Part shown: positions 16,640 through 36,500 of the stretch, piece by piece
Layout of the letters: each line of letters opens with the position of its first letter
How positions within the stretch are numbered: position 1 is the stretch's first letter
Assembly: GCA_041687695.1 (NCBI GenBank)
Contig: JAWLBL010000021.1
Location: forward strand, 70,325 to 134,324
Direction of reading: 5' to 3'
Source of the DNA: Myxococcota bacterium
Lineage (GTDB): Bacteria > Myxococcota_A > UBA9042 > PHBI01 > JAWLBL01
Length of the DNA stretch: 64,000 nt
The notes under the pieces: model-generated
Told to the model about the DNA's origin: nothing
The model's database searches: none
What the model saw: only the letters and a program-made list of their open reading frames with translations
Position numbers and translations under genes: made by a program

Positions 16640-17460
16640 ACCGGTTCGGCCACGCCCGGCTCCGCACCGCCACGACACCGCCGCCTCGCCCCCTGGGACC
16701 GCCGGTTTCCAGAGGGTGTCGCAGAAGCCCAACCGGAGTGCTCCACCTTGGTGGAGCCCCCATCCGGCGCAGCTTGCTGCGCCGGGGTTGGCGGCCAGAT
16801 CCCGGCGGCAAGCCGCCGGGGCCGGGGCTCCGGCAAGCCGGAGCACTCCAAGACCGCCTCCGCCGGCATCAACACGACACCCTCTTCCAGCCGGCCTCGC
16901 GCTCGCACCAGCACGACCTCCGACTCTCGGCCCCTGGGACCGCCGATTTCCAGGGGGTGTCGCAGAAGCCCAACCGGAGTGCTCCACCTTGGTGGAGCCC
17001 CCATCCGGCGCAGCTTGCTGCGCCGGGGTTGGCGGCCAGATCCCGGCGGCAAGCCGCCGGGGCCGGGGCTCCGGCAAGCCGGAGCACTCCAAGACCGCCT
17101 CCGCCGGCATCAACACGACACCCTCTTCCAGCCGGCCTCGCGCTCGCACCAGCACGACCTCCGACTCTCGGCCCCTGGGACCGCCGATTTCCAGAGGGTG
17201 TCGCAGAACCCCAACCGGAGTGCTCCACCTTGGTGGAGCCCCCATCCGGCGCAGCTTGCTGCGCCGTGGTTGGCGGCCAGATCCCGGCGGCAAGCCGCCG
17301 GGGCCGGGGCTCCGGCAAGCCGGAGCACTCCAAGGCCGCCTCCGCCGGCATCAGTACGACACCCTCTTCCAGCCGGCCTCACGCTCGCACCAGCACGACC
17401 TCCGACTCTCGGCCCCTGGGACCGCCGGCTTCCAGCCGGCCTCGCGCTCGCACCTGCACG
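16640..17460. repeat. Tandem array (~3.4 copies) of a 241-bp unit, each unit made of four GC-rich inverted repeats with CTTG/CAAG centres
   Basis: Unit starts at 16690, 16931, 17172 and 17413. Core: GGAGTGCTCCACCTTGGTGGAGC..CCGGCGCAGCTTGCTGCGCCGG..CCCGGCGGCAAGCCGCCGGG..GCTCCGGCAAGCCGGAGCACTCC. All ORFs across it are Pro/Arg/Ala-rich in every frame. Confidence 0.9.
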
Positions 17461-17612
17461 ACCTCAGCGTCCTCGCCCTCCCGCGCCGGCTTGGCCGGCG
17501 CTATGGACCGCGCCGGCCATGCCGGCGCTCTCGGATCTGGGGCGCACCACGGCACCGGCATGCCCCCCCTCCTGGGACCCGACTTCGTCGCTCTCCTCGC
17601 GCCGAAGAGCGC

Positions 17613-19414: not shown

Positions 19415-20383
19415 ATGACCGCGCCGCAACCACCGACCGAACCGAGCCTGGGCGACTACGTCGTCCACCCGAAGTTCCCCGAGTGGGGCCCGGGCAAGGT
19501 CGCGCTCGTCGAGGGCGGCAACGTGTGGGTCTTCTTCAGGGACTACGCGGGCTCGACACCCGAGGACTCCCGGCGCGCCAAGCGCTTCAAGCTGGCCGAC
19601 CTCCCGCTCGAGCGCGCGGACCTCACGTCCGACGTGGTCCTCGACAACCTCCCGCCCTACGAGCGCAACGGCGGCGTCCTCATGCTGCCGCACCAGCGCC
19701 TGACCCTGGCCGACGCGAAGAAGGTCTTCCTCACCGAGTTCCCCCTCGGCTTCAAAGACGGGACCTACATCGGCGACCTCAGGATCGGCGAGCGCGCCTA
19801 CAAGCTCGCCGCCCACGAGCGCTTCACCGCCTTGCTCGGCGGCGGTCAGCTCGCGCAGCTCCTGGCCAGCGGGCAGGTCGCCGAGGCCGCCTCGCGCGCC
19901 CTGCAAGCGGTCACCAAGCAGCTCAACCTGCTGTCCCCCTACGAGGCCATGGCCTTCAAGGACGCCCTCGCCGACGAGCCCGCGGCCGCCCGCTACCTCC
20001 GCGGCCTCGACGCCCTCCTCCAGGCCCCGACCCTGACCGCCCCAACCTTCGAGGCCTACCTCGCCGGCTTCTTCGCCCTCCCCCAGGTCGGCAACTCACG
20101 CGTCCACTCCTGGCCCGTCTGCAGCGCCCTGCCCTTCATCGCCGCCCCCACCCGCTTCATGTTCCTCAAGCCCGGCGAGACCCAGACCGCCGTCAACCGC
20201 TTCGCCTGGGACATCAAGTACACCCCCCGCCCCAACTACGACACCTACAAGCGCCTCCACTCCTTCGCCGCCTGGCTCCAGACCGAGCTAGCCGACATGG
20301 GCTGCGCGGACTACATCGATGTGCAGTCGTTCATGTTCATCACCTGCGGCAGTAGCCACGAAGGCGCTGTGGCCGCATGTTGA
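19415..20383 (+). CDS. Hypothetical protein with DUF3553-like N-terminus (GDYVVHPKFPEWGPGKV)
   Basis: ATG at 19415 (ORF track 18953, in frame) begins the protein-like region; the N-terminal 154 aa of the longer ORF is Arg/Pro-rich. The overlapping 18934 ORF in another frame is low-complexity. Confidence 0.55.
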   Translation: MTAPQPPTEPSLGDYVVHPKFPEWGPGKVALVEGGNVWVFFRDYAGSTPEDSRRAKRFKLADLPLERADLTSDVVLDNLPPYERNGGVLMLPHQRLTLADAKKVFLTEFPLGFKDGTYIGDLRIGERAYKLAAHERFTALLGGGQLAQLLASGQVAEAASRALQAVTKQLNLLSPYEAMAFKDALADEPAAARYLRGLDALLQAPTLTAPTFEAYLAGFFALPQVGNSRVHSWPVCSALPFIAAPTRFMFLKPGETQTAVNRFAWDIKYTPRPNYDTYKRLHSFAAWLQTELADMGCADYIDVQSFMFITCGSSHEGAVAAC

Positions 20384-20434: not shown

Positions 20435-20463
20435 AAAGCGGGAAGTGGCGAGGCCTGACCCTA
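20435..20463 (+). repeat. Left direct repeat (att-like) of the lower-GC island
   Basis: GAAAGCGGGAAGTGGCGAGGCCTGACCCT matches 26394-26423 (GAAAGTGAGAAGTGGCTAGGCCTGACCCCT) in direct orientation. GC content drops immediately downstream. Confidence 0.5.
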
Positions 20464-20660
20464 AGCATACGGACTTCCAGCCGGAGGCGCGGGACGGTCG
20501 AGCGTCGTGTCACGACCCGCGTGGCACGTGCGCTAGCGCCGTTGTCAGTTCACTCCCCGTTGGGCTAGACTATCACCTGATATTAGGACGTCTCTCCTGA
20601 TGCCTCAGCAGCCCGAGGTGCGTGCGATGCCGAGTGACGCCGGCCCCCCCCCCGACATGG

Positions 20661-20849
20661 ATGACCCTCGATGAATTTACTGAGCATCTCAGAGTTAGCC
20701 GTTAGAAGCTCTACAACCTCGCGCAGGGCGGCGAGATCCCCTGCTTCAAGGTCGCCGGTCGAAGAGGTTTCTATCGCCCGAAGATCGACGAATGGATGCT
20801 GGCGCAGGGCCCTGGGTCGGCGACCCCGAAGGGGGAACATCGTGAGTAG
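20661..20849 (+). pseudogene. Excisionase/HTH_17-like DNA-binding ORF interrupted by an in-frame TAG
   Basis: Reads MTLDEFTEHLRVSR*KLYNLAQGGEIPCFKVAGRRGFYRPKIDEWMLAQGP. This is the classic Xis/AlpA-type helix-turn-helix pattern, with an amber codon at 20703-20705 in the recognition-helix region. Confidence 0.6.
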
Positions 20850-20867
20850 ATCGCGCGGGGTAGCAGC

Positions 20868-23800
20868 ATGAGCGTCACAGAACACCTTGAAGGCCTTGCC
20901 GCCGCGATCAACGATGGTCGCCCCCTCGTCGTGCTCATGGGCCAGGATGCGTGGCGGGTCGGCACTCGGCCGGATCCTGCGGTACTCGCAGCGCTCAAGC
21001 GTGCCGAGAGATTGGAAGTGGACTCCGATCCGAGAGGGCTCGTTTCTCTGCTCTCCGTTGAGCCCCTGCCCGAAGACTTCTTTCAATGGCTCGCTGACCA
21101 GTACCTTCGGCAGGTCGAACCTGAGTGGTTTGAGCCCATCGCACGCCTCCCATTAAACGCATTCTTCACGACTAGCGTGGACCCTACACTTTCGAGGGCG
21201 CTTCGCGTTGGGGGCCGTGATGTTGAGGCAGTTCTGAGCAAGTCGGACACCCCCGCGGCGCCGCGCCACCGACGCAATCTCCACTTGAGCTACCTTTTCG
21301 GTCGCGCCGGTGAAATGAACCTCAGTGAGGCGCCGCCGAAGTCGACTCAGGAGTTGCGACGACGAACTGCATTGCACGCGAATGCCCTCCTCGCCCGACT
21401 CGTCGAAACCACCACGTCGCTCGGGGTGCTCGCTATTGACGGGTTGACCTGTGGTAGCGACTGGCTGTCGGCCGAATCGCTGTATGGCGTGCTGTCCGCG
21501 TTCAAGCCCGGCCAAGTCTTCTGGTTCGGGTGGGACTCTTCGCTGAGCACAGGCGACGCGGCCCTGATGGAGGAACTGGCGGCGCCCAATGGCCCCATCA
21601 CTTTCGTGCCCGAGAGGCTCTCTAGCTCTCTCCGCGCGCTCACACTGGCGGGCAGAATTGAGCCGCTTCGCGCGGCGTCCTTGGCGGCGACGAACGCCGT
21701 GACTATCGGCGAATCGCTCCTCGAGATTGAGCCCTCGACGCGACTCAAGACCTCGACGGCCGCTAGTATCGTCGACGACACGTGGCTCGCGCCACTTCCC
21801 GTGCTCGGTGAGGATGAGTTCTTCGAGGAGTTCCGACGATTCCACGGTCAGGTGGAGGAAGCGCGCCGGCTCGTCGAGGGGGTGAGGCGGGGGTTCGCCA
21901 TAGAGCGGGCCTTTGAGAATCGGCTTCGCGATCGAGTCCAGAACGCACTCAAGGACGCACCGCGGCTCAAGGAACCGATTCTGCTTCATGGTCAGTCCGG
22001 AACAGGCAAGAGCATCGCACTCGCGCGCCTCGCGCTCTCCGTTCGGAAGGATCGCCGATATCCGGTGCTAGTTGCCAGCCGCGCATCACGGTTGCCCGCG
22101 GTAGACGAGCTTGACGAGTTCTGTATGCGCGCCGAGGAGGCCGGCGCCGAAGCAACCCTTCTTATCTGTGATGCGAATGCGCAGGCGGCTCGGTATCGGG
22201 ACCTTCTGCGGGGCTTTCGAAGTCGAGGAAGACGAGTCGTTGTGGTCGGTAGCGCGTATCGCCTCATTGACCAGAAGCAGGCTGCGGGAGAAGGAAGGCA
22301 TCTCATCGAGGCGCCCTCGACGCTGGACGACGAAGAAGCTGCGAATCTCACCGCGGTTCTCCGGGAGCACGCCAGCCTCAAGTACACGTCCTCAACATCT
22401 CAATTTCTGCTGCCGGCCGTCTACCGCATTCTGCCGGAGGTGCGCCCTCGATTGGCCGCCGGTCTGGCTCACGAAGCGCGGGTCGCGGAGGATGATCTCA
22501 GGTCACGCGGGACAACCATTCGGCAGGGCAAGCCCCAGCCCGCCGGTGCGCTTGGACAGGCGCTCATAGATGCGGGCTTGATTGAACCGAAAGAACTTCT
22601 CGATCTGCGACTTCAGGAGTTCATGGGAGCCCTGAGCGACGCGGCATCGAAGGCGATCGACTACGTAATGGTGCCAGGGAAGCTGGACTGCCCTGTTCCC
22701 ATCAACCTGCTGATGCGGGCGGTAGGTGGGAGCGAGAGCCTGGTTGATATCGCATCCCTGTTCTCTGGAATCGACCTGTTTCGATGGAGCACAAACGACG
22801 AGGACGATATCTTCATTCACCCTCGCCTTCGAGTCGAAGCAGAGTTGGTCACAGCTCGACGGCTCGGAACGTCGACTGCTGAGGCACAGATAGCGGTTGA
22901 TCTCCTGAAAGCAGCGAACCCCACTACACATGGAAGCTGCGAGCGACGGTTCGTCCTGGACCTTGTTCATCGTCTGGGTCCCGACGGCCCCTACGGACCG
23001 TGCTACGCCGACCACTATCTGGACGTCGCACGCGCGCTTACGGAAATGCGCGAGCGGCGCGGGCTCAGCGACCCGAGCCTCATGCTCCAGGAAGCTCGTC
23101 TCAGACGACGGGTTTTTCGAGATGCCCGGCCGAACGAACGGCACAACCCTGCGACTATCCTGGACGAGGCACGGCAGATCGTCGATCTCGCCCTCGACGA
23201 GTTCGGCGCGGCCCGCTCGCCTGGGTTGCGCCGCGTTTGCTCAATGCTTCGGGTGGAGCGCGCCGCCATCTACGGCTTTCGCGCTGTGCAACAGCTACAG
23301 TCTGGTGCATCCCAAGATGAGACTTGGCAGTACTACGAGGCAGCACGAGACGCTGCTCGCAGTGCCTTGTTCTCTGCGGACGCGTACCACGCGATCGACG
23401 TGAGCCTTTGGATACCGCGCCGACTGCTCGAGGATGGGAACTGGGATTCCGTCCGGAAGGCGGAACTGACCGCCGACATATGGGATGGTCTCGAGCGCGT
23501 CGACGCTGACGATTTGGACGCAGACCAACGTGGCGTCTTCGAGGAGCAACGCTTCAAGGTCTCGAAAGCACTTGGGAGCGACGAGCTTGAATTGGCGGCT
23601 CTCCAGGCACTCGAGTCGATGGGGTCATCCGCGGGGCTGTTCCTGCAAGCGCGAGCGATCGGCGGCGATCTGCGGGGCCGCGGGATGGCGGACGATGGTG
23701 AACGGGAGCGAGCACGACGTGTAGTCGGGTTCCTAACTGAGAAGGGACCGCGGATCCGGGAGGACGCACGATGTCTTCGGTATCTCCTGCGCGCGACCTG

Positions 23801-24299
23801 GATCAGCGCGGCAGGTAGCTACTTGTTCGGAGGGGAACGACTTCCTCTGCCGGGTTCCGAGTCGGACCTCAGAGAGCTTCTGGACATCGTCGACACCCTC
23901 GCCAACATCGAAGGCTCGTTGGGAGACCCGCGAACCGAGTACCTGCGAGCCGTGTTGATGTGGCGGTTGCAGCGGGAGAACGCTGCGCGCGAGGTTTGGC
24001 GCGCCTTGAGCCAAGACACGGCATTCAACGACCCCCGACGCATCGTTCGACACCATGTATGGAGTGAGAGCGAAGGGAAACCGCGAGTCTTCTATGGCCG
24101 AGTCGTGCGCGATGACCTGGAGCGTGGGCGAGCCAAAGTTCAGGTGGACGACATCCGGCAGGAGATAGAGATCCTACAGCGCGACTTCCCTGACCTGGAG
24201 CTGCGGCGGGGCGCCTCGATTCGCGGCGGGTTCTACATCGCCTTCAACTTCATCGGGCCGATTGCGGAGCCACTTATCAGAAGAGGGGGTGGCCGATGA
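20868..24299 (+). CDS. SIR2-like + STAND P-loop NTPase (Avs5-like antiphage defence protein), 1143 aa
   Basis: N-terminus resembles SIR2_2 (GRPLVVLMGQDAW ~ GxLVLFvGAGvS; FFTTSVDPTLSRAL ~ iTTNYDxLLE; NLHLSYLFG ~ KLHGS). Walker A is LLHGQSGTGKSIALARLA and Walker B is ATLLICDANAQ. Long C-terminal helical region. Lower GC than the genome. Confidence 0.6.
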   Translation: MSVTEHLEGLAAAINDGRPLVVLMGQDAWRVGTRPDPAVLAALKRAERLEVDSDPRGLVSLLSVEPLPEDFFQWLADQYLRQVEPEWFEPIARLPLNAFFTTSVDPTLSRALRVGGRDVEAVLSKSDTPAAPRHRRNLHLSYLFGRAGEMNLSEAPPKSTQELRRRTALHANALLARLVETTTSLGVLAIDGLTCGSDWLSAESLYGVLSAFKPGQVFWFGWDSSLSTGDAALMEELAAPNGPITFVPERLSSSLRALTLAGRIEPLRAASLAATNAVTIGESLLEIEPSTRLKTSTAASIVDDTWLAPLPVLGEDEFFEEFRRFHGQVEEARRLVEGVRRGFAIERAFENRLRDRVQNALKDAPRLKEPILLHGQSGTGKSIALARLALSVRKDRRYPVLVASRASRLPAVDELDEFCMRAEEAGAEATLLICDANAQAARYRDLLRGFRSRGRRVVVVGSAYRLIDQKQAAGEGRHLIEAPSTLDDEEAANLTAVLREHASLKYTSSTSQFLLPAVYRILPEVRPRLAAGLAHEARVAEDDLRSRGTTIRQGKPQPAGALGQALIDAGLIEPKELLDLRLQEFMGALSDAASKAIDYVMVPGKLDCPVPINLLMRAVGGSESLVDIASLFSGIDLFRWSTNDEDDIFIHPRLRVEAELVTARRLGTSTAEAQIAVDLLKAANPTTHGSCERRFVLDLVHRLGPDGPYGPCYADHYLDVARALTEMRERRGLSDPSLMLQEARLRRRVFRDARPNERHNPATILDEARQIVDLALDEFGAARSPGLRRVCSMLRVERAAIYGFRAVQQLQSGASQDETWQYYEAARDAARSALFSADAYHAIDVSLWIPRRLLEDGNWDSVRKAELTADIWDGLERVDADDLDADQRGVFEEQRFKVSKALGSDELELAALQALESMGSSAGLFLQARAIGGDLRGRGMADDGERERARRVVGFLTEKGPRIREDARCLRYLLRATWISAAGSYLFGGERLPLPGSESDLRELLDIVDTLANIEGSLGDPRTEYLRAVLMWRLQRENAAREVWRALSQDTAFNDPRRIVRHHVWSESEGKPRVFYGRVVRDDLERGRAKVQVDDIRQEIEILQRDFPDLELRRGASIRGGFYIAFNFIGPIAEPLIRRGGGR

Positions 24300-25513
24300 G
24301 CTTCGAGAGCATTCTACGCTGTCACCAGCGGATCAACGGACTGTCCAGAAGCCTCCTCGGGCGTCCCGCGTTCGACGAGCTTCACGTCGCGCTCCCTGAC
24401 CCAGCGAGTCCCGAACCTGGCTTTATCCGGGCGACCTCGTGGCTTTACTGCCTTTACTTCGAAGCGGGGCGAGTCAGCATAACGTTCTTGCGCCGTCTCG
24501 GAGAGGCCTACTCGTTGATCGACCGCGCTGAGATCGACGAGCACGTTGAGGTCGTGCGGTGCCTTCGAACAGAACTCCACCACAACCTCGGGTTCGTGGA
24601 TTCAGATCAGGCTGCGCGGGCGTCCGCAGAGGGATGGCGTCGGAGGGTCTGCGGCACTGCGATTCCTCGAGACGACGCGCAGTGGAGCAAGTGCTATGTC
24701 GGCTTGATCGAGAAGGCCAACCACTTCCTGAGCGCCATCGATGAGGTCGTTCGACGTATTGAGGCCGACGGCGACAAGGCCGGACAGCACCTTGAAGAGT
24801 GGCTTCGACGTCTCGACCGTAGTTGGCCAGCGGCAGCCTTCGACCCTGTGGTCGATGAGGCGAAATACCACCTTGGCCGCCAGGGCCTCAACACCGTTGA
24901 GTTCAGGCAGCGCCATGTCGACCGGTGGCGCGCCCAACTCGAGCTCATGGAGGATGGGTTCGACTTTGCCGAAGAGGCTACTCGACTTGTCGAGAAGTCG
25001 CTGCTGGACGAAGACAGTTTCGTTCTTCCGATAACGGGCCGCGACATTGTGAACGCTCTGCAGATTGCATCTGGGCCGCGAATTGGGACGCTTCTCGAAC
25101 AGGCGCAACGGAGGTTTGCGGCTCAGCCCTGCACCAGGGAAGAGTTGCTCGCTCACCTGGAACGCAGCCGCCCAGATTCGGATTTCGACAGCCTTGTGGA
25201 CGCGGCGAAGGTACGCTTTGGACGAGACGATCTTAATACAGTCAGGTTTCGGCAGTGTCATGTGGACCACTGGCGCGAGCAGCTCGACCTCATGGAAGAC
25301 GACGTGGACTTCGATGACCAGGCGACGCGCCTAATCGAGAAGACGTTGACAGACGAGGTGCTTCTGCCGATCACGAGTCAGGATGTTTTGGACGAACTGC
25401 GGATCAAGCCTGGCCGCCGGGTAGGAGCACTCCTCGTGGCGGCTCGCAAGCGATTCGAGTCTGCGCCGTGCACCAAGGAGGTGCTGCTGGAGTATCTCGC
25501 TGCGGTCCCCTGA
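24296..25513 (+). CDS. Partner protein co-transcribed with the SIR2-STAND gene; contains an internal tandem duplication of a ~110-aa module
   Basis: Start overlaps the upstream stop (ATGA). Two repeats (...LNTVEFRQRHVDRWRAQLELMEDGFDF...LPITGRDIVNALQIASGPRIGTLLEQAQRRF...REELLAHLE and ...LNTVRFRQCHVDHWREQLDLMEDDVDF...LPITSQDVLDELRIKPGRRVGALLVAARKRF...KEVLLEYL). Confidence 0.6.
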   Translation: MSFESILRCHQRINGLSRSLLGRPAFDELHVALPDPASPEPGFIRATSWLYCLYFEAGRVSITFLRRLGEAYSLIDRAEIDEHVEVVRCLRTELHHNLGFVDSDQAARASAEGWRRRVCGTAIPRDDAQWSKCYVGLIEKANHFLSAIDEVVRRIEADGDKAGQHLEEWLRRLDRSWPAAAFDPVVDEAKYHLGRQGLNTVEFRQRHVDRWRAQLELMEDGFDFAEEATRLVEKSLLDEDSFVLPITGRDIVNALQIASGPRIGTLLEQAQRRFAAQPCTREELLAHLERSRPDSDFDSLVDAAKVRFGRDDLNTVRFRQCHVDHWREQLDLMEDDVDFDDQATRLIEKTLTDEVLLPITSQDVLDELRIKPGRRVGALLVAARKRFESAPCTKEVLLEYLAAVP

Positions 25514-25856
25514 ACCCCAGGGGCCACGTCCGTAAGTATCAGAGGTGTCAGGGTTCCCCATTTCCCACCCGTCGCCACAGACAGGGACCTCGGCGGCCTG
25601 CGGCTTCATAGGTGCGTCGGTGCGTGACGGCGATTGGGCGGGCCCCAGGGGCCACGTCCGTAGAAGTTAAGTTGCTCGCGGATGGGCGACCGAGGCTGCA
25701 GGCGGCGTGTCCCAGGGGTCAAGTCCCAACTTACAAACAACTCGAGTGCAGACGGCTGGTTACGGGTGGCCCATGGTGAAGGAGTATGCAAGTCGCGACT
25801 TGCCCCCTCGCCCCTCTGACCCCTCGCCCCTCAGTTGCGACCATCCGGAGGAAGTG

Positions 25857-26183
25857 ATGCCCTCGCTCAGTGAATATGTAAACGTCTACAACACAGCCCT
25901 TGAGGTGCTTCGTGTCAAGGGATATCGCGTCTGGTTCGACAAGGAGGCCGATATGTACTGTGCTGAGAAGGACGGATGGGATTTCATGGCCGATGGCCCG
26001 ATTTCGCTGCTCGGCCTCGTAGCAATCTATGAACATCAAAACCCTTCAACATACAGAGACTACTGGTGGCGGCAAGAAGGGCCGCTTGAGTTCAACAAAC
26101 TCCCCAGCGAGGCTCCAGATTGCATACCTCTTGGGGTGAAGAGTTCCGAGGGCGGGGCGGGGGCAAAGGGGTCAGACACCTAA
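25857..26183 (+). CDS. Small hypothetical protein (108 aa)
   Basis: GGAGG RBS then ATG at 25857. AT-richer codon usage (island-like). No recognisable domain. Confidence 0.4.
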   Translation: MPSLSEYVNVYNTALEVLRVKGYRVWFDKEADMYCAEKDGWDFMADGPISLLGLVAIYEHQNPSTYRDYWWRQEGPLEFNKLPSEAPDCIPLGVKSSEGGAGAKGSDT

Positions 26184-26355
26184 TTGTACGCTCCTGTTGG
26201 ACAAGGAAGTGGAGGCCGCTTTGCTCCTCGCCCCGATTGGGGTGGGACTCCTCTTCGTCGCCAATGGGGGGTTCGACGACATCGCGCGATGTGCACGGCT
26301 AAAGGACGCCGTTCTGTGGCGTTCGATGTCGCCGCCGGAACGGTAGGCCCAAAGG

Positions 26356-26424
26356 CAGGGGTCAGGCCTAGCCACTTTCCATATCGGTGCTCGGAAAGTG
26401 AGAAGTGGCTAGGCCTGACCCCTG
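26356..26424. repeat. Perfect 22-bp inverted repeat (long hairpin); its right arm is also the island's right direct repeat
   Basis: CAGGGGTCAGGCCTAGCCACTT ... AAGTGGCTAGGCCTGACCCCTG with a ~25-nt loop. Confidence 0.8.
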
Positions 26425-26584
26425 GGGCCTGGTTCAGACAGGGCCTCCGCTGGTACGAGCTCCTGCCAAACATGCCCGAGGATCGTCTGAAGAAACGCAT
26501 GAACGAGTTCGTTGCGGTCATGCGAGAGCACGAGGTATGCAGCGCCGTTCTGGGGGTGCTGTAGGAATGGGGGGATGCCTCAAG

Positions 26585-26990
26585 GCCCAGGGGCCACGTC
26601 CGTAAAAGTTAAGTTGCTCGCGTGACCTCAGGGTCAAGTCCCAACTTGCAAACAACTCGAGTACGGACGGTTGGTTACGGGTGGCCCATGACGAAGAAGA
26701 GATCAGCCAGCTCCCCGTATTGGGCTCTAACAGTGAACCTCCGAAGGGCATGCGCCTCGGGGATCGGGTGAAGTGAACTCCGACGAGGCCCAGGGGCCAC
26801 GTCCGTAAAAGTTAAATTGCTCGCGTGACCTCAGGGTCAAGTCCCAACTTGCAAACAACTCGAGTACGGACGGTTGGTTACGGGTGGCCCATGACGAAGA
26901 AGAGATCAGCCAGCTCCCCGTATTGGGCTCTAACAGTGAACCTCAGAAGGGCATGCACCTCGGGGATCGGGTGAAGTGAACTCCGACGAG
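26585..26990. repeat. 203-bp tandem duplication (x2) containing MITE-like hairpin elements with CAGGGGCCACGTCCGTA termini
   Basis: Unit starts at 26585 and 26788, >95% identical. Related copies at 25515-25560 and 25643-25790, and a complete TIR-bounded copy at 63046-63260. Confidence 0.8.
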
Positions 26991-27108
26991 ATGATTCGAG
27001 GCGGCACGACCGCCGACAACGCATCGCATCGGCCTCGTCGTTCGGCTGTGTTGCTCAACATCTCTCCATTTCCTGGAGCGACGAGAAAGTGACATGTGAT
27101 GAACCGGC

Positions 27109-28476
27109 TCAATCCCCGAAGGCGTGGAGTGCACCGGGAACGTCGGCGAAAGCCCAGCCGTCGGGCAGCTGTTGGTCGGTGCCGCCGGCCCAGCGGATGA
27201 AGCGCGGGCGGGGGCCGTCGCTGTACCAGATGCCGGAGTCGGTCAGAGCATCGGGCCAGAGCGGAAAGTCGACGGCCCCTGGAGCAGGGACGAGGGCTGC
27301 CACCGCTCGGCCCTGGTTGGCGTCGAACACGGTGAGCCCGCGCGAGTCGACGATGATGTGAGAGTCGCCTGACCGGTACTGACGGACACCTGGGCCCTGG
27401 AGGTCGGCCGTCCGGGCAACCACGCGACCTTCATCGAGGTCAACGACGGCGATCCGGGACGGAAGGGCGCCTGGTCCGGTGCGCTCGATGAGCGGCAAGT
27501 AGCGAGGGACGGCCTGTCCCAAAGCCGCTCGATGAGGATAACGCCAGGCGATGCCCCCGAGCGCGTACCTGGTGACCTCGTCCGGGGGGTGGATGTCCAA
27601 TTGCCACATCGGACGACCGCCCGATGAGAGACGAAGCAGCCGGTACGGCCCTCGAATCGGGCCTGCCAGTACGACCAGGTCGGAGCCTCGAGTGCCGCAC
27701 GCGTGAATCCCGTTGGACGAGGGCCATGAGATGTCCTGGGCGGCTTCGCTCGCGAAGGAAGCGAGATGGACGGTGTCATAGTCGGAGAAGATCGGGCGAT
27801 CCTCGACAAGGCAAGCTACAGACCGGCTCTCGGCCGTGCGGAGGTGTCGTCCGGTGTCGCGGTCGAGCCAGACGAGGGTCTCGATGGCGTCGACCAGGAC
27901 ATGGGAGTCGGTCAGGTGCAAGCGGCGAAGCTTGCCGGCGTGTCCGAAGTCGGCCCGCCACGCGACGCCTGTCGACGGTGCGATCCCCAAAACCGCGTCC
28001 GCTTGGGGCACGTGGAGCGCAGCGCCTCGATCGTCGGCGACGAGGCTGTAAGGTCCCGAGGTCCACTGCTCATCCTCGCGCGAGGACCAAAGCGTAGCGC
28101 CGTCTTCGAACGAGACTGCGTGGATGAAGAGGTCGTCGTCGACCGCCGTGACCAGGATGGCGGACTGCAACGTCGGAGCGAGTAGCACCTGCCCGACACT
28201 GACTCGCCAGCTGCCAGGTACGCGCGACCGCCACAAACGCTCTCCCTGCCGCCAGGCCTCGACGAGCGTCTCGCGGTCACTCGGCCGGTCAGTGAGCACG
28301 AAGATCACCTGCCCGTGCGCCACGACGGCACGCGCGGCATCATGGTCGCTGCGAGACCACATGAGGAGACCCATGATCGAGCACACGGCGACCAAAGCGA
28401 TGACGAGTCGGTTTCGGATCAGGGCTGAATCTCCGGGAGTTGGGCCATCGGCAAGCTCATGACTTCGGCCATCCAC
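27109..28476 (-). CDS. Membrane-anchored beta-propeller (PQQ/BamB-like repeat) protein, hypothetical
   Basis: N-terminal TM helix (LVIALVAVCSIMGLLMW). Repeated ...LWS../..VW.. blade-like motifs. Lower GC. Confidence 0.5.
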   Translation of the reverse strand: MDGRSHELADGPTPGDSALIRNRLVIALVAVCSIMGLLMWSRSDHDAARAVVAHGQVIFVLTDRPSDRETLVEAWRQGERLWRSRVPGSWRVSVGQVLLAPTLQSAILVTAVDDDLFIHAVSFEDGATLWSSREDEQWTSGPYSLVADDRGAALHVPQADAVLGIAPSTGVAWRADFGHAGKLRRLHLTDSHVLVDAIETLVWLDRDTGRHLRTAESRSVACLVEDRPIFSDYDTVHLASFASEAAQDISWPSSNGIHACGTRGSDLVVLAGPIRGPYRLLRLSSGGRPMWQLDIHPPDEVTRYALGGIAWRYPHRAALGQAVPRYLPLIERTGPGALPSRIAVVDLDEGRVVARTADLQGPGVRQYRSGDSHIIVDSRGLTVFDANQGRAVAALVPAPGAVDFPLWPDALTDSGIWYSDGPRPRFIRWAGGTDQQLPDGWAFADVPGALHAFGD

Positions 28477-28921
28477 ATCGCCTGAGCCGCGATCGGAACC
28501 ATACCGAAGTCGTCGGGTGCGATTTGCATCCCATACCGTGATCTACCCCGCTCGAGGATCCAACGGCCCTCGGCCGAGTCGCGGTGGTCGATTAGACGGA
28601 TCGAATGAGCGATGACGCTGAGCTTGGCTCAAGCCGCAGGGATCTGCAAGGGTCCAATGGTCGCTAAACGAGTGCGCAGCGCAGGTCGCACCGCCCGATA
28701 CTACGGCTGTCCAGGGACCCCGGTTTCGTCCGCCACCATTCCGGCCTTTACTGAGACGCGGAACCTACACCCGCTGGCCCCGCCGTATGCGACGCGGTCG
28801 TCCCGCTCCTGCCTCGCTGCCGATGCCAGGGCTGCAGTCGTGTCGTGCCGCCGCCCGACGGAGCGTCGCCGAGACAAGCGGGCGATGGATCCATTCCCGA
28901 CGCCGGGCGTCGAACGGCGGC

Positions 28922-29782
28922 ATGCTTCGCCAACACGTCGTCGTCGCCGTTCTCGCCCTGCTCCTGCTCACGCTCGCCTCGCCGGCGGCCGCCGAGATTC
29001 CGGTCCCGGATGCCGCGACGCGTCAGGTCCTGAGGGCCGCCGTGCTGGAGGTCGAGCGGGACCACCCGCGCTACCACGTCGACCTCACGGCCGGGTGGTT
29101 CGTCGTGGCGACGGACGGCTCGCGCGCGGCCCACCAAAAGGCGCGCGGTGTCGTCACCCAGGCCGTGCGCTCGCTGTACCTCGAGTACTTCGAGGCGTCT
29201 CCCACCGCGCCGCTGCCGACGTTCGTCCTGCCCAACGCCGCCGCCTACCGCCGCTTCGTCGTCAGCGTCTACGGCGACGAGGGCCCGGCCCTGGGCAACC
29301 TGGGGTTCTTCGACCCTGGCCGCCGGCTGCTCATCCTGAACCACGGCCCCGGCCCCGGCACGCTCGCCCACGAGCTGGTCCACCCGCTGCTGCGCCACGA
29401 CTTCCCCCAGGCGCCCGCCTGGCTCGACGAGGGCTTCGCCGCCCTGTACGAGCACAAGACCTACCAGGACGGCCGCATGAAGCCCTTCGTCAACTGGCGC
29501 ATGCGGCACCTCCGCGCCCGCGCCCGCGACCTGTCGCTGCACGAGCTCATGACCTCGAGCACGGGCGACGTCTACGGACGCGACAGCGGGCTGTACTACG
29601 CCATGGGCCGCCACTTCCTGATGCACCTGCACCGCCAGGGCCACCTGGCCGCCTTCTACCGCGCCTACCGCGACGACTTCGCCGCGGACCCCACCGGCAT
29701 CACCCAGCTCGAGCGCGTCGTCGGCCAGCCCCTCGCCACCATCGAGGCCGCCTTCTGGACCTGGGTCGAACGCCACCGCTGA
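28922..29782 (+). CDS. Secreted HExxH protein (DUF1570/peptidase-MA-like), putative metallopeptidase
   Basis: Signal peptide MLRQHVVVAVLALLLLTLASPAAA from the ATG at 28922. AHELVHPLL zinc-binding-like motif. Confidence 0.55.
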   Translation: MLRQHVVVAVLALLLLTLASPAAAEIPVPDAATRQVLRAAVLEVERDHPRYHVDLTAGWFVVATDGSRAAHQKARGVVTQAVRSLYLEYFEASPTAPLPTFVLPNAAAYRRFVVSVYGDEGPALGNLGFFDPGRRLLILNHGPGPGTLAHELVHPLLRHDFPQAPAWLDEGFAALYEHKTYQDGRMKPFVNWRMRHLRARARDLSLHELMTSSTGDVYGRDSGLYYAMGRHFLMHLHRQGHLAAFYRAYRDDFAADPTGITQLERVVGQPLATIEAAFWTWVERHR

Positions 29783-33409: not shown

Positions 33410-33504
33410 GGCGCGCGCATCGTAGGGCGACGGACTTCTCAGGCCAAGGCGACCGTGATAGATACGACCTATTCACACACGCACGGGTTTTGGGGAGGTC
33501 GGCC

Positions 33505-36500
33505 ATGAGCCACGAGCGGGACGCCCAGGCGCAGCCGGAAGACCGCGCGATCGCGCGCACGCCTTCGAACGCGAACGCTCAGTCGACGGAGCCCTCGCGC
33601 GGCGCGGCGCTCAAGCCCGCGCTGCGGCAGCTGGGCGCGGCGGGGGGCTACCAGGCCCAGGCGGCCTTCCTGGCGCCTGGCGCGGTGCAGGCCGACGGCG
33701 GCGCGGTGCAGGGCGGCCAGGACGCGCAGGCCATCGCCCAGGCCGGCGTCCGCGGCGGCGGCGGCGCCCTGCCCCACGCGGGGGCCATCCAGGCCTCCTT
33801 CGGTCGCTTCGACGTCGGCGGGGTGCGGGCGCACGTGGGCGGCGCGGCGGCCGACGCCTCCAAGCAGCTGGGCGCCAACGCCTACGCCACGGGCGACGCG
33901 GTCGGGTTCGCCGGCGCGCCCAGCCTGCACACGGCGGCCCACGAGGCGGCCCACGTGGTGCAGCAGCGCGCGGGCGTGCAGCTCGAGGGCGGCGTCGGCG
34001 CCGAGGGGGACGCCTACGAGCGGCACGCCGACGCGGTGGCCGATCGGGTCGTGGCCGGAGCGTCGGCCGAGGAGCTGCTGGCCAGCGGCCCGGGCGGTGG
34101 CGGCGCGGGGCCGGCGGTACAGCGCGAGGCGGCGCCGGGGGCGGGGCCGGTCGTCGGGACCGTCTACACGCTGGACGGCGACTGCCAGTGGCGCTTCGAG
34201 GCCGACGGCGGCTGGACCTTCCTCCGCGACGGCAAGGCGGTGCAGACGTTCCGGCCGGGCAGCGAGACCTGCGCCACCGTCGGCGCGCAGTACGAGAAGA
34301 AGCACGGCGGCGTGGTCCCCGCGGCGGCGCCGGCGCAGGCGCCCGAGGCTTCGGCCGGGAGCGAGGCGCCCGCGGCTTCGGCCGGGAGCGAGGCGCCCGC
34401 GGCGGCCGAGGCGGGCAGCGAGGCGGCGCCGGTGGCGACGCCGCCGGGCGGGGTCATCGAGCACGCGCGCTGTGTGGACGCCAACGCCTACCTGCGCGAG
34501 GGGCCGCCCAGCGGGGCGCGGGACGCGCAGCGCCGCAACGTCCCGCAGGGGCGCTACGTCACCTGGCTGGGGACGGCGCGGACCAAGGCCGGAGAGCTGG
34601 CGCACGTCCTGTACCGCGAGGGGGGCGAGGTCATCGACGGCTGGTCGGGCACCGGCAACTTCGCCGGGCGCGGGCCGCTGCCGGCCGAGGAGTGGGCGCG
34701 GCTGTCCAAGGCCGAGGCGCCGCCGCTGACCACGGCCGAGATCACGGCGCGGGTCCAGGCGCCGGACGCGGCCGAGCAGGAAGACGACGCGCAGATCCGG
34801 GCCGACCGCGACGCGCGGCGGGCGGCGGGCGAGACCGGCGGCGGCGTCGGGGCGCTGTCGGCGACGCCGGCGGGCTTTCTGACGGTGGGCGCGGACGCGG
34901 GCCGCGTGACCGTGCACGAGGGGCCCAGCGGCGGCGCGCGGGTGGGCGAGGTGGCCGCCGGGGACCACGTGGCGATGACCGGGTCGCGGCAAGAGGTGGG
35001 CGGCGCGACCTGGGTCGAGGTGGACCTGGGTGATGGCGTGCTCGGGTGGCTGGACGCGGCGGCGACCAACGCGGCCGAGGTGCTGGGCGAGGTGGCGGCG
35101 GCGGCCGAGGCCGAGGCGGCGCGCGAGACGGCGCGGCAGGAGGCCGAGCTGTATTCGGAGATCGTCGCGCCCGAGCCCGAGCAGGTCGCGGCGGCGCCGG
35201 CCGGGCTGAAGGCCCGGGCGCACCTGGTGGTGGCGGGCGACGGGACGGCGCCGGTGTACGACGGGCTGCTGTCGGAGCGGACGCTGGGGCAGCTGCCGGC
35301 GGCGGCGGGCGAGGCGCGGCACTGGGAGCTGGTGGCCGAGATCGGGCCGGGCGACGGCGAGCGGCGCGAGGTGCTGTTCGGGGGGCGGCCCGGGTTCGTG
35401 GCGCGGGCGGCGCTGCGCGAGGCGACGCCGGTCGACGTGATGATGAACGCGCAGGTGCTGGCCGAGGACGAGGTCCCAGCGGCGCGGGCGGCGCTGGCGG
35501 CGATGACCGACGAGCCGGCGCGGCGCGAGGCCTACATGCTGCGGCTGCAGGCGATGGCGCCGGGGCTCGGGCGCGAGGACCAGGCGAGCTTCTCGCACGG
35601 CGGGCGCGGGGCGCCGATGAACCAGCTGGCGGCGTGCCTGGCCTTCCTGGGCGTGCCGAACCCGTACCCGGACCAGCCGTTCGCGGACGCGCTGGAGCTG
35701 GTGCGGCTCGAACGGGGGCTGTCGCCGGCGATGGACGTGGCCGGGTGGGCGGCGCTGGTGACGCAGCTGGGGGTCGGGTGCCAGGCGCTGGGCGACGCCA
35801 GCCCGGCGGCGCTGAAGGGGCACCTGGCGGCGGGCGCGTCGGTGATGCTGACCGTCGGCGGCGGGGCGTGGGTGCGGGTGCGCGGGGTCGGCGAGGACGG
35901 GGCGGTGCAGGTCGACGGGCTCGGCGGCGGGACGTCGGTGGCGCCGGCGGGGGCGCTGGCCGGTGCCCAGGGGTGCGTGTTCGCGGTGCCGACCGAGGCG
36001 GCGCTGGACCCGACGCTGCTGGAGACCGACGTGGCGCTGGACGCGGCGACGGCGAGCGCCGGGTACGACGAGATGTACGCGGCGACCAGCGCGGCCGAGA
36101 GCGACTGGTACGAGAAGAAGCGCGGGGACGCGGAGCTGGCGGGGCACGTGCCGGAGGCGGGGTCGCCGCTGGCGTTCGCGGGGGCGCCAGCGGACAAGAT
36201 CGAGCAGGCGTTCGAGCGGGTGATGGGGCCGCCGGGGGCGGACGTGCGGGCGGGGTTCGCGCGGGGCGCAGGGTTCTTGGGGCCGCTGTTCGCGGTGGCC
36301 GAGCCGGCCGAGGCGCTGGTCGAGGGGCGGCAGGCGGCGCGCGAGCGGCTGCGCGGGTGGCTGCGTGACGCGGTGGCGAAGGCGGTCGAGGGGCCGGGCG
36401 GGGTGGCCGAGGCCGGGGCGGCGGTGCAGTGGCTGGAGGCGAGCGGGGCGATCGGCGGCGAGCCGGTGGTGACCGAGGCGACGCGGGACGTGCTGCGGGC

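Follow-up and report, generated by a model that had tools for sequence, protein, structure and literature searches.

What kind of system is encoded by a stretch of atypical composition in the genome of a myxococcotal bacterium, and where does that system begin and end? The stretch lies within 64,000 nucleotides of contig JAWLBL010000021.1 (assembly GCA_041687695.1), which are referred to here as the window. It carries a gene for a large STAND NTPase and, overlapping its end, a gene for a smaller partner protein. The original prediction, made from the letters of the DNA, had placed both genes in a defence island bounded by direct repeats and had called the NTPase Avs5-like. The analysis described here points to a more compact unit of a different kind. 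Positions 20841-25513 probably constitute a self-contained, horizontally transferred two-gene NLR-like (STAND) conflict operon, most likely an anti-phage system of the abortive-infection type. The module is real and widespread, it appears not to have been described before as a two-gene form of STAND-type conflict system, and a literature search for nSTAND5 or PF25199, the NTPase family of its first product, found no paper.

Gene pairing and distribution

The STAND gene (20868-24299, plus strand) encodes a protein of 1143 residues composed of a SIR2-fold N-domain, an nSTAND5 NTPase, a helical region and a beta-rich C-terminus. The partner gene (24296-25513, plus strand) encodes 405 residues that form an all-alpha domain followed by two modules homologous to the tRNA-binding tail of class II CCA-adding enzymes; its start overlaps the stop of the STAND gene in the sequence ATGA. 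Homology searches yielded 232 relatives of the STAND protein and 119 of the partner, and contigs of identical length recur in both sets for many of the matches. Pairing of the two genes was followed through 66 loci, with one genome scanned per species. The partner lies directly downstream of the STAND gene in all 65 assessable loci, 62 of which were established by tblastn and three more by profile hidden Markov model (HMM), while the 66th, a 1.6-kb contig ending inside the STAND gene, was left out. An overlap of four nucleotides between STAND stop and partner start recurs in 39 of 62 loci, and the two genes lie within 44 nucleotides of each other in 62 of 62. The original prediction had described a dedicated partner with an ATGA overlap and had suggested looking for it beside homologues of the NTPase; both the coupling and the conservation are borne out by these loci. 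Clustering of 1191 neighbouring open reading frames (ORFs) from the 66 loci revealed no further conserved gene. Only the STAND gene and its partner recur, and a third component of the system was ruled out. At one locus on a megabase-scale contig (L069, 14040-14333), the STAND gene is followed by a gene call of only 97 residues, and the partner there may be frameshifted or decayed.

The 66 loci belong to Myxococcota, Acidobacteriota, Chlorobiota, Gamma- and Alphaproteobacteria, Chloroflexota, Latescibacterota, Spirochaetia, Gemmatimonadota, Cyanobacteria, Desulfobacterota, Hydrogenedentes, Binatia and one Methanosarcinaceae archaeon. The spread of the module is patchy, covering more than 10 bacterial phyla and a single archaeon.

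Close relatives delimit the DNA that is held in common. The window shares only positions 20480-25521 with a Nannocystis metagenome-assembled genome (MAG; locus L001) and a Logan contig, at 93% nucleotide identity, and only 20841-25513 with a third relative, at 85%, which corresponds exactly to the two genes. All flanks differ between the window and these three close relatives. The longer shared cassette (20480-25521, plus strand) consists of a leader, an HTH_17 gene, the STAND gene and the partner gene. It lies in a trough of guanine-plus-cytosine (GC) content that spans ~20.3-28.7 kb, with values of 0.57-0.68 against 0.70-0.80 in the surroundings, in agreement with the drop predicted at ~20.4-28.6 kb. 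The GC content of third codon positions (GC3) is 0.69-0.70 in both large ORFs, compared with 0.92-0.95 in the flank genes at 19415-20383 and 28787-29782. The region at 20.3-28.7 kb is of foreign composition, as these values support.

The STAND protein

The N-domain of the STAND protein (20868-21770, plus strand; residues 1-300) was modelled with AlphaFold2 over residues 1-335 (pLDDT 83, pTM 0.80), and the model was compared with the PDB by Foldseek. There were 72 PDB matches at E <=1e-3, and all of those listed (the best 50 of 72) are defence SIR2 proteins. The leading matches are ThsA (E 2e-7), KomC, SIR2-HerA, DSR2, EfAvs5 (9jap) and AVAST5 (9nc9), and the matches to defence sirtuins have a probability of 1.00 and a TM score of ~0.5. 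As modelled, the N-domain is a Rossmann-type, defence-type SIR2 fold. This assignment is made because of the fold and not because of an HMM match: SIR2 HMMs gave no match to the window protein, and SIR2_2 (PF13289) matched one of 38 relatives. The SIR2_2-like N-domain of the original prediction is therefore retained as a SIR2 fold, while the likeness to SIR2_2 finds no HMM match in the window protein itself.

The residues that characterize SIR2 enzymes have been replaced within this fold. G25-Q26-D-A-W takes the place of GAGxS, F100-T101-T-S103-V-D105 that of TTNxD, and Y-L-F144-G that of HG. The serine that substitutes for the asparagine of SIR2 enzymes in the window motif FTTSVD had been noticed from the start (as TTSVD) and proved to be typical of the family: among 114 relatives the position is occupied by Ser in 88, Ala in 11, Thr in nine and Gly in three, and by Asn in none. 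Phe stands at the position of the HG histidine in 114 of 114 relatives, GQDAW replaces GAGxS across the same set, and YTTNYD of KomC falls on FTSSID in a profile alignment. Near-invariant pocket residues include Q26, T101, D105, R133, F144, D191/G192 and D198/W199. Because the replaced residues are themselves near-invariant, the N-domain appears to be selected for something other than canonical NAD hydrolysis, and it would serve as a non-catalytic platform or a ligand site.

Residues 340-473 match nSTAND_NTPase5 (PF25199) with 39.2 bits against a Pfam gathering score of 34, and the domain was taken as residues 340-500. Its core (21885-22367, plus strand) contains the Walker A motif G375-x-x-G-x-G380-K381-S382, which reads GQSGTGKS (residues 375-382), and the Walker B motif hhhC-D435-A-N437, with D435 as the Walker B aspartate. 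G375, G380, K381, S382 and D435 are invariant in relatives. PF25199 is matched by all 38 aligned relatives, and nSTAND3 (PF20720) by five of the 38, with E values of 0.018 or worse. The 1143-residue STAND NTPase with Walker A and B motifs was thus correctly recognized in the original prediction. In the Walker B motif hhhC-D-A-N (22170-22180, residues 434-437), D435 and N437 are invariant and there is no second acidic residue of the sort that STAND NTPases usually have, a feature suggestive of hydrolysis that is slow or regulated.

The stretch from residue 500 to 1030 is helical, and behind it (~1040-1143) comes a conserved C-terminal domain, rich in beta structure, whose last residues are AFNFIGPIA. 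In profile comparisons with PDB sequences, this domain had no match and the full STAND protein had weak P-loop matches only. The order of the parts is therefore SIR2-like domain, NTPase, helical region and a beta-rich C-terminal domain without a PDB sequence match. The product of gene 1 is probably a sensor-switch, in which a SIR2-fold domain devoid of the canonical NAD-hydrolysis residues is combined with nSTAND5, the helical region and the beta-rich C-terminus.

The partner protein

Residues 1-178 of the partner form an all-alpha domain (model pLDDT 87) whose motif consists of E56 and R91-T-x3-H96-N; the window sequence reads R91-T-E-L-H-H96. An exhaustive HMMER search with this domain returned 551 cluster representatives (50% identity) at E <=1e-3, and among the best 130 of the 551, 129 retain E56, and the same number holds for R91 and for H96. 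The Rx4H pattern of HEPN RNases is present in the domain, which shares with those enzymes an all-alpha composition, a polar residue after the arginine, an asparagine after the histidine and an invariant upstream glutamate. The domain gave no match to HEPN HMMs or in fold comparison, and the likeness exists at the level of the motif only. It is thus the R-x4-H motif that suggests an RNase.

The remainder of the protein, residues 179-292 and 293-405, consists of two copies of a module resembling the tail of CCA-adding enzymes, matched in both sequence and structure. PF13735 (tRNA_NucTran2_2) matches this tail in 37 of 42 partner members (best E 1.7e-6), and the partner profile matches the C-terminus of human TRNT1 (E 6.6e-4). 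Duplication of the module, and with it the length of 405 residues, is confined to the clade of the window protein (P0121-P0123); most other relatives have one copy and ~295 residues. HMMs for PolyA_pol and NTP_transf did not match the partner, so it does not have a nucleotidyltransferase head. In contrast to a class II CCA-adding enzyme, the partner is without head, neck and body; the tail (PF13735), duplicated in the window clade, is attached to a helical domain that is unrelated.

Three partner representatives have acquired additional C-terminal domains, namely TIR_2 in P0428 and P0438 and PNP_UDP_1 in P0421. P0428 (L070, 8001-9875) and P0421 (L072, 3849-5708) are each encoded directly after an nSTAND5 gene, and in both cases the degenerate SIR2 domain is preserved in that gene. 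Fusions to TIR and PNP are a common trait of conflict systems. That such classical conflict effectors are appended to the partner argues for its being an effector or an effector-carrying subunit, and gene 2 would accordingly supply an effector or effector-adaptor subunit that is translationally coupled to gene 1.

Relation to known systems

ThsA, DSR2, SIR2-HerA and KomC, which are the best structural matches to the window N-domain (E 2e-7 to 1e-4), are active NADases with catalytic Asn and His (or Asn). The window family differs from them in having neither catalytic residue. To our knowledge, the effector is in cis in almost all characterised bacterial Avs proteins. The window family resembles Avs5 in its N-terminal SIR2 fold, STAND NTPase, long C-terminal region and similar size, and in a patchy, defence-island-linked occurrence. 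In PaAvs5, however, GAGXS and TTNXD are conserved, immunity is lost on substitution N110A and the NTPase belongs to nSTAND3 (PMC12931631). Unlike Avs5, the window family has PF25199 in place of PF20720 and an obligatory second gene, and its effector is probably in trans. A PADLOC check of the STAND protein produced no AVAST match for the window protein or for 38 relatives; with PADLOC v2, the 38 STAND members gave marginal P-loop matches to mad8 and RtcR. NCBIfam had no match for either the STAND protein or the partner. The loss of GAGXS and TTNXD, the nSTAND5 instead of nSTAND3 and the missing AVAST match indicate that the window protein is not a member of Avs5, and with two genes per system, a partner in 65 of 65 loci and the catalytic Asn in none of 114 relatives, Avs5 membership was rejected and the earlier label Avs5-like given up.

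A second comparison is with SAMD9/SAMD9L and Avs9/Avs6, whose core runs from a variant SIR2 through a P-loop NTPase and TPR to an OB fold. In these proteins the variant SIR2-like domain lies beside a STAND-like NTPase, and the part of effector falls to another module, either AlbA_2, which cleaves tRNA-Phe in SAMD9, or PNP (PMC5445408, PMC12680541). Similarly, the window family has its effector-type domains (TIR, PNP) and its tRNA-enzyme-like module outside the SIR2-STAND core. It differs from SAMD9/Avs9 in that the extra module is a separate polypeptide and not an N-terminal fusion, and in that AlbA_2 is absent. SAMD9 and Avs9/Avs6 may be regarded as the closest parallel, in a conceptual sense.

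Genomic context in relatives

Neighbouring genes were scanned from precomputed gene calls, as greedy ORF calls in high-GC loci were too noisy. The neighbours of the pair include a type I restriction-modification system and MazE, PemK, PIN toxins and transposases, SLFN_AlbA_2, a REase and a DUF4011 helicase. GmrSD, an N6_N4 methyltransferase, an AAA_15/21 ATPase and a PLD-DUF3427 helicase were also encountered. The cassette of the Nannocystis MAG is accompanied by a tyrosine integrase at a distance of 3.7 kb, a C5 methyltransferase and HATPase_c_3. Neighbours from restriction-modification, toxin-antitoxin and transposase families are the signature of defence-island cargo.

Repeats and flanks of the cassette

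The repeats on which the proposed island boundaries were based are real, and their arrangement is not that of a simple direct pair. The left copy of the 29-nucleotide repeat, GAAAGCGGGAAGTGGCGAGGCCTGACCCT (20435-20463, plus strand), is a solo half-copy of a palindromic repeat and is located in the gap between the native flank gene, which stops at 20383, and the cassette, which starts at 20480. It recurs at 26394-26423, and the repeat core AAGTGGCKAGGCCTGACCC has three copies in the window where 0.04 would be expected by chance. The copy at 26.4 kb lies within a perfect 22-bp palindrome with a 25-nucleotide loop (26356-26424). As its left arm (26356-26377, minus strand) pairs perfectly with its right arm (26403-26424), this copy is a hairpin element. 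An Rfam search of 19-30 kb gave only spurious miRNA-like matches on the palindrome. The DNA common to relatives ends 3-8 nucleotides past the partner stop and ~870 nucleotides before the second repeat, 25.5-26.4 kb being not common to relatives. The repeats were looked for in the Nannocystis relative and were absent, and the ORFs scanned within 20.4-28.6 kb contained no recombinase, integrase or transposase domain. With the common DNA stopping at 25513-25521, the repeats absent from the relative and no integrase in those ORFs, a reading of the repeats as attL and attR is unsupported: the repeat itself (20435, 26394) stands, and its right copy is one half of a palindrome outside the shared DNA.

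The shared leader contains a predicted sigma-70-like promoter, TTGTCA-18-TAGACT (20542-20571, plus strand), which is tentative, the number of such sites not being above chance. It is followed by the HTH_17 gene (20661-20849, plus strand), in which an in-frame TAG occurs at 20703-20705. The orthologue in the Nannocystis relative (L001, 9788-9979) is intact and matches PF12728 with an E value of 3.4e-15. Because of its in-frame TAG, the gene is a pseudogene in the window. It is found beside the pair only in the Nannocystis-type cassette and is absent from that place in other loci. The Xis-like HTH ORF of the original prediction is thus indeed of the AlpA/excisionase-type HTH_17 family, with the reservation that it carries a premature stop here and does not belong to the conserved system. 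As a system component it was ruled out, being limited to one cassette type and broken in the window.

On the right, the flank from 25.5 to 27.0 kb is a patchwork of other repeats. A motif of ~35 nucleotides, CAGGGGCCACGTCCGTAARAGTNAANTTGCTC, has direct copies just downstream of the partner gene at 25516, 25644, 26586 and 26789; the first of the four (25516-25552, plus strand), CAGGGGCCACGTCCGTAA..TTGCTC, begins 3 nucleotides after the partner stop. The same motif occurs at 63.0-63.3 kb as an inverted pair (63047, plus strand, and 63241, minus strand) around ~150 nucleotides, an arrangement like that of a miniature inverted-repeat transposable element, and it could be a mobile repeat dispersed in the source genome. 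A tandem duplication of a 203-nucleotide unit (26583-26988, plus strand; 99% identity) is not common to relatives. Each unit carries the ~35-nucleotide motif and ends in a 27-codon ORF (MTKKRSASSPYWALTVNLRRACASGIG), and a third, diverged copy of the first ~150 nucleotides of the unit (25639-25784) precedes an ORF at 25773-26183. The 203-nucleotide unit had no Rfam match.

The left flank gene (19415-20383) is native-looking, with a GC3 of 0.95, and its product contains DUF3553. The top database homologue of this product is just 58% identical, and its homologues are scattered over phyla. The flank protein had no relative in a metagenome scan, and an exact-sequence look-up of the window STAND and flank proteins returned no record. 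At the 19415-20383 locus, the source genome thus appears to be without a close sequenced relative in the databases searched. A tRNA scan of the window found no tRNA gene to serve as an integration site. Elsewhere in the window, GC content is exceptionally high (~0.80) at 33500-36000, and a long ORF region upstream of the module has 205-nucleotide direct repeats at 17000-17480, which are 241 nucleotides apart, 95% identical and provided with internal inverted repeats.

Alternative explanations and a possible mechanism

An integrative island reaching from 20435 to 26424, or as far as 28.6 kb, with the repeats as attL and attR and the HTH_17 gene acting in excision, would account for several of these features, including the non-random occurrence of the repeat, the position of one copy exactly between the native flank gene and foreign DNA, the extension of the GC trough over 20.3-28.7 kb and the tyrosine integrase 3.7 kb from the cassette of the Nannocystis MAG. 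Such an island is nevertheless very unlikely, given that the DNA common to relatives stops at 25521 or 25513, that the repeats are absent from the relative, that the copy at 26.4 kb makes up one half of a perfect palindrome in a flank pieced together from other repeats, and that the ORFs scanned at 20.4-28.6 kb encode no integrase or transposase domain and a stop codon interrupts the HTH_17 gene. A different question is whether the module might be a genuine Avs5-type system after all, with the SIR2 domain working as an active NADase through non-canonical residues and the partner serving as regulator, sensor or chaperone. D105 and D191 are retained in a strongly conserved pocket, the N-domain fold matches EfAvs5 (9jap) and AVAST5 (9nc9), and Avs5 is known to tolerate Asn instead of the catalytic His (PMC12931631). 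This explanation is considered unlikely, since none of 114 relatives has the Asn on which PaAvs5 depends for immunity (N110A) and GAGXS is replaced by GQDAW; moreover, the NTPase is nSTAND5, with nSTAND3 matched in five of 38 (E >=0.018) and SIR2_2 in one of 38, PADLOC has no AVAST match, and where bona fide effector domains (TIR, PNP) have been added, it is the partner and not the STAND protein that carries them.

The pair might also have no immune function and act in signalling or RNA metabolism, for instance as a STAND-switched factor of tRNA repair or tRNA turnover. The homology of the partner tail to that of a tRNA-maturation enzyme is in keeping with such a role, as are the common form of the partner, in which there is no known toxin domain, and the missing match in defence databases. 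Little probability is assigned to it in view of the sporadic spread shaped by horizontal transfer, the foreign composition, the contexts rich in restriction-modification, toxin-antitoxin and transposon genes, the TIR and PNP fusions and the lack of a nucleotidyltransferase head domain. A two-gene conflict operon is thus the preferred explanation, and as deduced from sequence, its role in defence is that of a candidate. Three points weigh against it. The module had no match in the plasmid or phage collections searched, the PADLOC 2023 models match none of 38 STAND and 42 partner members, and the pocket of the SIR2-fold domain is itself highly conserved and may have a non-canonical catalytic or ligand-binding role.

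If the two genes do form a conflict operon, its action can be envisaged in a series of steps. Binding of a trigger to the C-terminal part of the STAND protein would drive NTP-dependent oligomerisation. The STAND oligomer would then assemble and activate the partner via the non-catalytic SIR2-like platform, and the partner would act on RNA, probably tRNA, leading to translation arrest. Where the partner carries an added TIR or PNP domain, as it does in rare relatives, this domain could contribute depletion of NAD or nucleotides. A bolder version of this scheme, which is rather doubtful, regards the family as a 'split' prokaryotic counterpart of the SAMD9/Avs9 NTPases, in which the SIR2 domain would be a dead platform and the obligate partner would dock tRNA via its CCA-like tail and cut or modify it with a new Glu/Arg/His site.

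Significance

The family presents a SIR2 fold that has lost the NADase residues throughout and is yet under strong constraint. Its obligate, coupled partner combines an uncharacterised, conserved motif resembling an active site with a module derived from a tRNA enzyme. If the module is a conflict operon as proposed, a new type of effector would be added to STAND systems, and effectors would be exchanged on a separate subunit, which occurs in a base form, as a TIR fusion and as a PNP fusion. The module would also allow the 'variant SIR2' domain of human SAMD9/SAMD9L, so far unexplained, to be modelled in tractable bacteria. Should the 'split' SAMD9/Avs9 counterpart prove to be true, the partner would represent a new family of tRNA-targeting effectors, and the SIR2 fold would have been repurposed from an NADase to a scaffold or ligand sensor.

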